Shown here in pieces: positions 3,461 through 4,457 of a stretch of 51,542 nucleotides of DNA (positions within the stretch are counted from its first letter, which is position 1; each line of letters opens with the position of its first letter). This stretch comes from Clostridia bacterium. Lineage in GTDB: Bacteria > Bacillota > Clostridia > Christensenellales > UBA1242. The notes under the pieces were generated by a model that saw nothing but the letters and a program-made list of their open reading frames with translations, was not told the DNA's origin and searched no databases. A program made the position numbers and the translations under genes. The stretch is from assembly GCA_017452165.1 (NCBI GenBank), contig JAFTMY010000090.1:1-51542 (forward strand), written 5' to 3'.

Positions 3461-4457
3461 TAACAATTATATCACTTGAAATTATCTTCAAATCTCCGTT
3501 TAAAATTTGTTTTAAATTATATTCTTTTTTTGTTTTTTGACACACAACAATATTTCTATCATAATTAAAAATAATTGTTGGCGTAGATGAAAAAAGTGCA
3601 TTTTTTATGTTTTTTCTTTGAATTTCTATATCATTTTTACTATCTTTTGATATTTTTTCTAAAATTTTCTTTTCTAAATTTTCAAATGCTCGCTTTTTAT
3701 TCATCACTTGCGAGCGTTCATCTTTACACACAACAACAATACCTGTTGGTTTATGAATAAGTCTTATTCCACTTTCAGTTTTGTTGATATGCTGTCCACC
3801 CGCCCCATCTGATTTTAGTGTTTCAATTTCTACATCATCAGTGCTTAATTTAAAATTATTATCTTTTATATTTAAAATGACAACTCCAAAAACCGTCTCA
3901 TTTCCTGCAGTAATCATTTTAACATTACCTGAAAAAATATTCAAATCATCATATATATTATCACCTATAATTTCAATCAAGGTATTGTTTTCATTTTGAT
4001 TTATTACAACAAACTCACAATTGTTCATTTTTGCATATAAACTAAATAAGTTAATAATGTTTGCAAATTTCTCACTATCCCCAGTTTTCAAAGTAATCTC
4101 TATTTTTATCTTTTGATTTAACTTTTCATCTGATTTTACAAGTTCATTTTTCATTTGATTAAAAAGTATATTGCTCTTTTCGGACAAACTTTTATTTTGT
4201 ATTATCAATTGGTTTTTTATTTCTGAACTTTCTTCAATTGTTAAAAGTTCTTCATTGTCTTCTATTTCTAATTTTAATTTTTTAAATTCTTTAAATAGTG
4301 TTACAATTTTTTCTAAAGACTTATATTTTTTTTGATAATATAAAAAAAGTTTATTATCCATCATTATTTCCACAGACTCAAGTAATTCGCCTATTTCATC
4401 ATACTCTTTTTCTTTCTCATTAAACTTTACCATAAATGTTTTGTCTATTTTTTCCAT
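3450..4457 (-). CDS. class-I peptide chain release factor (RF1-like) paralogue with a conserved GGQ domain and a degenerate decoding region
   Basis: [42 protein letters not shown] matches the RF GGQ domain (GGQ codons at 3792-3800). The N-terminal helical region has an RF1-like pattern. Where RF1 has RVPxTExxGRxHTS, this protein has [13 protein letters not shown]. No PxT or SPF motif is present and the segment is about 9 aa shorter. No obvious SD upstream. Confidence 0.8.
   Translation of the reverse strand: [335 protein letters not shown]

Follow-up and report, generated by a model that had tools for sequence, protein, structure and literature searches.

The DNA stretch analysed here is contig JAFTMY010000090.1 of the Clostridia bacterium genome assembly GCA_017452165.1, taken at its full length of 51,542 nucleotides and referred to as the window. 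It begins with genes of a conserved cassette, whose order is a release factor (RF)-like protein, a helicase of superfamily 1 (SF1), a coiled-coil protein, a single-pass membrane protein with GLUG repeats (protein 4) and a small membrane protein (protein 5). The RF-like protein, which is the main subject of this report, retains the catalytic GGQ tripeptide of the class-I release factors and has lost the PxT loop involved in reading the stop codon. The positions of all features discussed are collected in Table 1.

Table 1. Features of the RF-like gene and its cassette, numbered as in the window
Feature	Position	Strand	Basis
RF1-derived RF-like protein, 335 amino acids, four domains, GGQ intact, PxT loop deleted	3450..4457	(-)	Open reading frame (ORF), Pfam, NCBIfam, AlphaFold2, Foldseek
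GGQ catalytic tripeptide, residues 220-222	3792..3800	(-)	Reverse complement of ctgtccacc; inside an invariant 12-residue motif
Shortened beta-hairpin, residues 175-196, in place of PxT loop and GRxHTS segment	3870..3935	(-)	HMMER and MAFFT alignments
Tip of helix alpha5, residues 120-129, 3-residue deletion relative to GTGGEEAALFA	4071..4100	(-)	HMMER and MAFFT alignments
Remodelled switch-loop/domain-4 block, residues 280-304, conserved within the family	3546..3620	(-)	Family alignment
Predicted promoter: -35 TTGTAT (4492-4487), 17-nucleotide spacer ending in TGT, TG at 4472-4471, -10 TATTAT (4469-4464), 6 nucleotides to ATG	4464..4492	(-)	Sequence and alignment
SF1 UvrD/HelD-like helicase, 809 amino acids from ATG at 3460 (811 from TTG at 3466), overlapping the stop codon of the RF-like gene	1031..3460	(-)	Pfam, PDB profile, AlphaFold2/Foldseek
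Coiled-coil protein, 237 amino acids, conserved C-terminus DVNEEY.F.I.D.WA..R..K.KK	318..1031	(-)	Alignment
Protein 4, N-terminal fragment (first 102 residues), cytoplasmic domain with GRFPVLSLCYLY, runs off the window	1..306	(-)	Translation

Pfam recognizes the PCRF domain (PF03462, 41.8 bits) and the RF-1 domain (PF00472, 92.5 bits) in the RF-like protein, while its scores with the NCBIfam models of the individual release factor types remain below the respective cut-offs. The values are 145 bits against a cut-off of 423.25 for the prfA model TIGR00019 and 144 against 400 for NF001859, 100 against 370 for the prfB model TIGR00020, which is below the prfA score, 78.7 against 166.65 for the PrfH model TIGR03072, and 40 against 100 for the ArfB model NF006718, which matches the GGQ stretch alone. 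The prfA scores exceed the prfB scores in every group of the related sequences described below, which points to a descent of the gene from RF1. HMMER aligns the protein from end to end with solved chains of RF1 and mtRF1, and a structural model obtained with AlphaFold2 from an alignment of 88 relatives (pLDDT 86.8) contains the four domains of a release factor. The top ranks of a Foldseek search with this model are taken by ribosome-bound mtRF1, RF1 and RF2 (TM-scores of 0.56-0.62), whereas closed crystal forms of release factors rank lower (0.36-0.43). Domain 3 is the best conserved part of the protein, with a mean column conservation of 0.72 compared to 0.42-0.52 in the other domains; the GGQ motif with its flanks, the DERSQ sequence and the residues H235 and T238 are invariant in all 88 family members. 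The initial annotation, which had been made from the DNA sequence alone, described the GGQ region as close to canonical, in agreement with a MAFFT alignment in which the stretch from GGQ to DERSQ is unchanged relative to canonical RF1 of Clostridia.

The elements for reading the stop codon present a different picture. As known from the structures of ribosome-bound Thermus RF1, reading of the stop codon involves Gly116 and Glu119 at the tip of helix alpha5 and the threonine of the PxT motif, with Gln181, Ile192, His193 and Thr194 of the hairpin as further readers. None of these residues has a counterpart in the RF-like protein, except for the glutamate of the alpha5 tip, which is often kept in the family (E129, 58 of 88 members). 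The HMMER alignment with RF1 of Thermus thermophilus places gaps of 2, 4 and 3 residues exactly over the segment hRVQRVpvteTQGRihtS, and the MAFFT alignment with canonical RF1 of Clostridia shows an 8-residue gap by which VPxTExxG is removed, together with further gaps of 3 residues at the alpha5 tip and 6 residues in domain 2. The hairpin loop comprises 23 residues compared to 31 in canonical RF1, and the AlphaFold2 model contains a tight beta-hairpin with a two-residue turn (177-183/186-197) where the PxT loop would sit. Conservation of this hairpin in the 88-sequence alignment is weak and confined to S176, G177, K180, I182, G185 and E187, and no equivalents of the His and Thr residues of the canonical GRxHTS segment are found. 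The alpha5 tip is likewise weakly conserved and variable within the family, with a gap at position 126 in 38 of the 88 sequences. The region corresponding to SPF of RF2 is also deleted, as judged from the alignments and not from a separate search for an SPF motif. The loss of the recognition tripeptide, with about nine residues fewer before GGQ, had already been proposed in the initial annotation and is confirmed by HMMER, MAFFT and the structural model as a deletion of 8-9 residues. Misalignment of a still existing PxT motif had been considered there as well, but none of the 102 PxT-less relatives described below contains a P.T within its loop. A sequencing artefact is ruled out, because the deletions are common to all 88 aligned family members.

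A third alteration affects the switch loop, where the canonical block (G)DRSEKIRTYNFPQxRVTDHR is replaced by the family motif QR..KNAIFS.TP...FDFD.N. The C-terminal block had initially been regarded as degenerate: the loss of RSERIRTYNFPQxRVTDHR is indeed evident, but the replacing motif is conserved across the family (of 88 sequences, Q280 is present in 87, R281 and F289 in all, T292 in 81, D298 in 79, D300 in 85 and N302 in 79) and therefore does not represent random decay.

Database searches identified about 90 clusters of proteins with 309-341 amino acids and 34-65% identity to the RF-like protein, followed by a sharp drop to canonical RF1 proteins of 354-357 amino acids at about 31% identity. 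The family has its own invariant residues outside of the catalytic domain, namely E30, D34, E120, G177, R281 and F289. Its members appear in the databases as 'PCRF domain-containing protein', 'peptide chain release factor-like protein' or 'peptide chain release factor 1', and all of those named come from metagenome-assembled genomes (MAGs) of uncultured Clostridia or Bacillota; no description of the family or of the cassette was found among open-access papers and preprints. The gene is under purifying selection: in a close pair of orthologues (loci L087 and L090), 8 of the changes are synonymous and 4 non-synonymous, where about 10 of the 12 would be expected to be non-synonymous under neutrality, corresponding to a ratio of non-synonymous to synonymous substitution rates (dN/dS) of about 0.11 for these 12 substitutions in one pair (binomial P 0.0004).

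These data also bear on the proposal of the initial annotation that the gene may represent a decaying paralogue, or a member of a pseudogene lineage. The low scores against the RF1 models, the fast divergence and the presence of one truncated relative would be in line with decay, yet this explanation is effectively refuted by the existence of 88 or more intact orthologues, in which the family has invariant residues of its own beyond domain 3, by the 102 intact PxT-less representatives containing GGQ, by the dN/dS value, and by the conservation of promoter and operon. Full-length intact genes were also present in all eight further cassette loci, which were retrieved via their proteins, and in 11 of the 12 loci from metagenomes in which an RF-like gene occurs. 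The exception is locus L108, whose ORF upstream of the helicase gene (L108:1280-1804) codes for only 174 amino acids, essentially the GGQ domain alone; truncation, a wrongly assigned ORF start or a frameshift may account for this.

A profile search of the full library extended the family further. The best 150 matches yielded 127 near-full-length representatives at 50% identity, of which 102 contain GGQ and lack PxT, the remaining 25 being canonical RF1 proteins. The loops of the PxT-less proteins have 19-31 residues (median 23), compared to 31 in the 25 canonical proteins, and their sequences are not conserved between three groups distinguished by their motifs. Group A is the family of the protein in the window, with the motif GGQHINKTE; group B consists of proteins of 302-325 amino acids with the hairpin E[VI]G.H...QVFVY and the motif GGQHINTTD; group C is characterized by ESG[IL]HKAVG... 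and GGQNVNKVE, and some of its members still retain IRTYNF..VTDHR. Two proteins of group C reach prfA scores of 289-330 bits, compared to about 140 bits for one protein each of groups A and B, which points to a single RF1-derived lineage whose groups represent different stages of divergence. The comparison of the groups is relevant for the alternative that the protein is a specialised terminator, reading a particular signal, be it a stop codon or some non-standard feature of the A site, through other residues, as does mtRF1 with its altered loop. Within group A, a few residues of the hairpin are indeed fairly conserved (K180 in 74, G185 in 75 and E187 in 69 of 88 sequences), E129 of the alpha5 tip is retained in 58, and mtRF1 is the top neighbour in structure and sequence. 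On the other hand, the loop has become shorter and not longer, groups A, B and C of the same cassette vary freely in its length and sequence, and the His and Thr residues of GRxHTS have no equivalents, so that we regard a specialised terminator as decidedly unlikely.

Another alternative is that these organisms have no RF1 besides the RF-like protein, which would recognise UAA and UAG in a novel way to terminate translation there. The window (27% GC) contains 38 ORFs of at least 100 codons, 35 of which end in TAA, three in TAG and none in TGA, with TGA occurring 2024 times as a trinucleotide and TAG 1201 times. An unassigned UGA codon and a loss of RF2 were considered, based on the absence of TGA among 93 stops when relatives were included, and were rejected, since TGA is read through in the gene calls of loci L084 and L085. 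Six in-frame TGA codons occur in these loci, all of them within the last ten codons of the respective genes; one is part of an ATGA overlap, and the genes called by JGI end at these positions. Under translation table 11, five genes of the L084 and L085 loci end in TGA, and TGA stops are common in other cassette loci. TGA is therefore a genuine, if rare, stop codon, and the lineage uses all three stop codons, from which codon-reading RF1 and RF2 activities are inferred elsewhere in these genomes. Note that the NCBI-derived calls concerned (L084:14163-16205, 16187-16453 and 17159-17758; L085:8872-9849 and 10996-13479) look like table-4-style translations applied to a table-11 organism, and that the JGI calls of the same DNA (L086) stop at TGA.

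A role as sole RF1 would agree with the failure to find a canonical prfA gene alongside the RF-like gene. The lineage's own prfA was also not found among low-GC prfA loci by shared genes and an RF1 profile search, was not linked to the lineage by tblastn of the cassette proteins against all prfA loci, and was not picked out by the amino acid composition of the top canonical RF1 matches and the canonical representatives. However, the RF-like gene has a much higher rate of evolution than the housekeeping genes next to it: a comparison of the window with three relatives gives identities of 40-45% for the RF-like proteins, 60-67% for the helicases and 67-81% for the gpsA products, whereas canonical RF1 proteins of other low-GC Clostridia share 76-91% identity between species. 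As judged from these sequence comparisons, the RF-like protein does not behave as a housekeeping terminator. Moreover, its loop is not conserved among the groups, and its gene lies in an operon with a helicase and membrane proteins instead of the prfA-prmC context. A function as the only RF1 is therefore considered extremely improbable.

The gene neighbourhood gives indications on possible partners. Every group-A locus seen consists of a divergent gpsA gene, the RF-like gene, genes for proteins of about 815 (helicase), 238, 660 and 85 amino acids, and HAD-family genes; down to 36% identity of the RF-like proteins, the cassette occupies the same fixed chromosomal position between housekeeping genes. 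This order alone could represent inherited synteny. However, the group-B locus L093 and the group-C locus L094 contain the same five genes in the same order with completely different flanks, with identities across the groups of 46-50% for the helicases, 44-56% for the coiled-coil proteins (whose overall range across groups is 44-72%) and 31-34% for protein 4. A scan of metagenomes seeded with the 237-amino acid coiled-coil protein revealed 29 loci with GC contents of 29-58%, in which the genes for helicase, coiled-coil protein and protein 4 occur in the same order wherever the contig covers them, a few short contigs being partial. Fifteen loci extend far enough upstream; ten of them have an RF-like gene as the immediate upstream neighbour, two more have one 2.8-4.4 kb further upstream, and all 12 of these genes code for GGQ and lack PxT. 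The retention of the gene order in different surroundings and in the metagenome loci favours a functional link over inherited synteny, and the overlaps of stop and start codons within the cassette suggest translational coupling. The initial annotation had raised the idea that the protein may need a partner, and this idea gains support from the occurrence of the five-gene cassette in unrelated contexts, while the cooperation itself is inferred. It may be added that the coiled-coil proteins P0538 (L099) and P0522 (L100) are encoded on contigs of 1.75 and 1.72 Mb, indicating that near-complete genomes of carriers are public; one of these contigs is labelled 'Oligella ureolytica', probably because of mis-binning.

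The helicase contains intact Walker A (GSGKT) and Walker B (DEVQD) motifs and matches the Pfam families UvrD-helicase, AAA_19 and Viral_helicase1. A PDB search with the single sequence gave no match, whereas a profile search detects PcrA (7e-8) and, besides it, only UvrD. In Foldseek, the AlphaFold2 model of the helicase, which is based on database homologues (pLDDT 78), finds HelD (6wvk) on top (E 9.5e-12), with a TM-score of 0.34 that does not surpass those of UvrD, PcrA and Rep (about 0.35). Going by the profile matches, the helicase is a remote relative of UvrD and PcrA. The coiled-coil protein is of an all-helical type with a basic, conserved C-terminus and has only coiled-coil-type matches in the library. 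Protein 4, which is available at full length in L084, L087, L093 and L094, is composed of a cytoplasmic N-terminal domain, one transmembrane helix and an ectodomain with GLUG repeats, and protein 5 is a small membrane protein.

A membrane protein with an ectodomain in the same cassette as a fast-evolving RF-like protein may also suggest a defence or conflict system, in which a membrane sensor and the helicase would control the RF-like protein as an effector ending translation prematurely, e.g., upon phage infection. Consistent with this, PADLOC-DB v2 gives weak matches of the helicase to the GajB type (2.7e-13) and of the coiled-coil protein to LmuB, JetC and ZorA. These matches are of the generic UvrD and coiled-coil kinds, however, and PADLOC-DB v2 gave no match for the RF-like protein, protein 4 or protein 5, nor any match at the level of a complete system. 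In addition, the group-A cassette has a fixed chromosomal position between housekeeping genes, and the helicase and coiled-coil proteins are well conserved. Relatives of the coiled-coil protein, which was used as the cassette marker, were absent from viral contigs and plasmids (the helicase and proteins 4 and 5 were not searched there), and phage records contained only matches of less than 28% identity to the RF-like protein. We therefore consider a defence system unlikely.

The RF-like protein may also have a role without peptide release, either binding to ribosomes or another partner in a regulatory or blocking manner, or hydrolysing a non-ribosomal ester by means of its GGQ motif. Every element contacting the decoding centre is rewritten, as would be expected in this case, and the link to a UvrD/HelD-like helicase hints at a context of nucleic acids or transcription. 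Against this stands the fact that GGQ with its flanks, H235, T238 and DERSQ are kept as strictly as in working release factors. The GGQ region of release factors contacts 23S rRNA and the P-site tRNA, so its conservation would be hard to explain away from the peptidyl-transferase centre, and a non-releasing role appears very unlikely.

We propose instead that the RF-like protein acts as a stop-codon-independent peptidyl-tRNA hydrolase on stalled ribosomes, together with the helicase module, a reading to which we assign about even chances on the basis of sequences and structural models. The protein would represent a selected, RF1-derived third paralogue of class-I release factors. The retention of domains 1, 2 and 4 argues for docking in the ribosomal A site like a normal release factor through the four-domain architecture, and the strict conservation of the GGQ domain speaks for a continued action in the peptidyl-transferase centre, where the unchanged GGQ loop would be placed. 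The loss of PxT and the His/Thr residues, the variable, degenerate alpha5 tip and the free variation of the loop between the groups argue that no codon is read, and the new motif in the rewritten switch region, combined with the fixed partners, suggests that docking or activation is governed by something besides a stop codon. Nascent chains would thus be freed from ribosomes that have stalled without a readable stop codon. The closer resemblance of the model to open, ribosome-bound RF1 and mtRF1 than to the closed forms is also counted in favour of this proposal. As the product of the first gene of a five-gene operon, the protein probably works with its operon partners, or is targeted or licensed by them.

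Several observations weigh against this proposal. The two membrane proteins are not accounted for by a simple rescue factor model, and in three high-GC loci (L110-L112) no RF-like gene adjoins the genes for helicase, coiled-coil protein and protein 4. A PadR-like gene of 180 codons is found directly upstream of the helicase gene in these loci (L110:7095-7637, L111:4775-5317 and L112:7080-7622), and no RF-like gene occurs within the sequence available, indicating that, at least locally, the module around the helicase can occur in the absence of such a gene. A contig scan with the family alignment did not show canonical prfA and prfB together with the RF-like gene in one genome, the matches listed being canonical RF1 loci of other taxa. 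Finally, the faster evolution of the RF-like protein compared to its neighbours fits a relaxed or shifting constraint on domains 1, 2 and 4, and the dN/dS figure stems from 12 substitutions in one pair.

A more elaborate version, which we regard as doubtful, would see the cassette as a previously unrecognised machine for translation surveillance. The SF1 helicase, with its UvrD/HelD/Upf1 fold, and the coiled-coil protein as an adaptor would be tethered or signalled via the two membrane proteins and recruit the codon-blind release factor to ribosomes stalled on intact mRNA, e.g., those caught at the membrane or behind an RNA polymerase that has come to a halt. The mRNA channel of such ribosomes would be occupied, so that rescue of the transfer-messenger RNA (tmRNA) type could not reach them. 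The system would then be a bacterial counterpart of the eukaryotic surveillance by a helicase and a release factor (Upf1 with eRF1), and leaderless expression might keep the RF-like gene independent of Shine-Dalgarno (SD) initiation.

This last point refers to the promoter of the gene. The absence of an SD sequence had been remarked upon initially, and the 25 nucleotides upstream of the gene (AATCAAAATTTGTTATTATGTTATT) indeed do not contain one, unlike most neighbouring genes with their GGAG-type sites. An alignment of the upstream regions revealed a promoter that had been missed by a generic promoter scanner, the -35 box in the window matching at three of six positions. All seven distinct group-A loci share the arrangement TTG(T/A)A(A/T), a 17-nucleotide spacer, TGnTAnnnT and six nucleotides to the ATG. 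A nearly identical arrangement is present in L100, and the same one, with near-consensus -35 boxes, in L101, where it lies one nucleotide further from the ATG, and in L109 from a genome of 58% GC; L093, L116 and L119 contain ordinary SD sites. Since the -10 box ends six nucleotides before the ATG, a leaderless mRNA is predicted for the RF-like gene in this lineage, which would explain the missing SD sequence. An Rfam scan of the leader and gene region gave nothing but a chance match to a miRNA (E 0.75).

A view on the known systems shows that the RF-like protein does not conform to the defining features of RF1, RF2, PrfH, ArfB or mtRF1. It resembles RF1 (PrfA, TIGR00019) in the four-domain architecture with PCRF and RF-1 domains, the near-identical GGQ domain and the best model score in all groups, and differs by the absence of PxT and GRxHTS, the shortened alpha5 tip, the rewritten switch loop, another operon and faster evolution. 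The closest analogue in terms of logic is PrfH, and the closest in evolutionary history mtRF1 and the plant proteins mtRF2b/c. PrfH (RF-H) acts on ribosomes unable to terminate normally and has the RNA ligase RtcB as its partner (PMC1586002, PMC6514570, bioRxiv 10.1101/2025.01.09.632186). Like the RF-like protein, it is a bacterial paralogue of release factors with GGQ, an altered codon-recognition domain and a dedicated operon including a nucleic-acid enzyme. However, PrfH has about 200 amino acids, lacks domain 1 and spreads sporadically by horizontal transfer, whereas the RF-like protein keeps domain 1 and belongs to a cassette that is syntenic across the lineage; its neighbours are the helicase and the coiled-coil protein, and RtcB is not among them. 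Vertebrate mtRF1 is likewise an RF1 paralogue of full length; it originated from a duplication, its loop is of a non-PxT type, and it is the top PDB neighbour in sequence and fold. Its loop is enlarged (PEVGLS) and an RT insertion is present in alpha5 (PMC3472500), whereas the loop of the RF-like protein has eight residues deleted and its alpha5 tip is shortened. The plant organellar proteins mtRF2c/pRF2c and mtRF2b are release factor duplicates without codon-recognition motifs, whose function is unknown (PMC3472500). In contrast to the bacterial family, they are eukaryotic and organellar, mtRF2c is truncated, mtRF2b also lacks GGQ, and no helicase cassette is associated with them.

Peptide release without codon reading is established for the GGQ hydrolases ArfB, ICT1 and mtRF-R (C12orf65) (PMC6514570, PMC3472500). 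These hydrolases consist of the GGQ domain on its own, complemented by a basic C-terminal tail or a partner (ArfB, with its tail, has about 140 amino acids), while the RF-like protein retains domains 1, 2 and 4. In the systems ArfA-RF2, BrfA-RF2 and ArfT-RF1/2, a full-length release factor acts without a stop codon once a partner replaces the codon (PMC6881298). These combine a housekeeping release factor with a small adaptor, whereas in the cassette the release factor itself is a dedicated, altered paralogue. By analogy with ArfA-type adaptors, the coiled-coil protein with its basic C-terminus could in principle act as a licensing partner; no ArfA- or BrfA-like gene was recognised.

Reviews list RF1, RF2, ArfB and PrfH as the bacterial families of class-I release factor type (PMC6514570). 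The family described here would be the fifth, being full-length, RF1-derived, predicted to be codon-blind and widespread in uncultured Clostridia from guts and digesters. It would also be the first class-I release factor type whose genes are stably linked to those of an SF1 helicase and of membrane proteins. Firmicutes are reported to lack ArfB (PMC6514570), and descriptions of BrfA are so far limited to Bacillus subtilis; the family is therefore a candidate backup of trans-translation in Clostridia. Moreover, its annotation under RF1-type labels can mislead counts of marker genes and the inference of genetic codes in MAGs.

Some further observations concern other genes of the window and its relatives. 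A 465-amino acid protein with a Zeta_toxin domain (14326-15723, reverse strand) is overlapped by an upstream ORF of 172 codons without a family match (15704-16222, reverse strand), and the two may form a toxin-antitoxin-like pair. Large ORFs with no or only marginal Pfam domains are located at 11308-14217 (forward, 969 amino acids), 35523-37913 (reverse, 796), 40735-42390 (reverse, 551) and 44844-46145 (forward, 433). A protein with WYL and WCX domains is encoded at 39590-40594 on the forward strand; such regulators are often found near defence or DNA-damage loci. A SpoIIE homologue (26489-28801, reverse strand) suggests a spore-former or a descendant of one. The L087 locus contains a RelA/SpoT gene split into ORFs of 649 and 56 amino acids (L087:6773-8862), which is intact with 696 amino acids in the near-identical L088 (6772-8862), so that the split is probably a frameshift from assembly or sequencing. 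Finally, the gene at 43727-44656 (forward strand) of the window codes for a formate/nitrite transporter domain fused to a cysteine-rich CPCC domain at the C-terminus.

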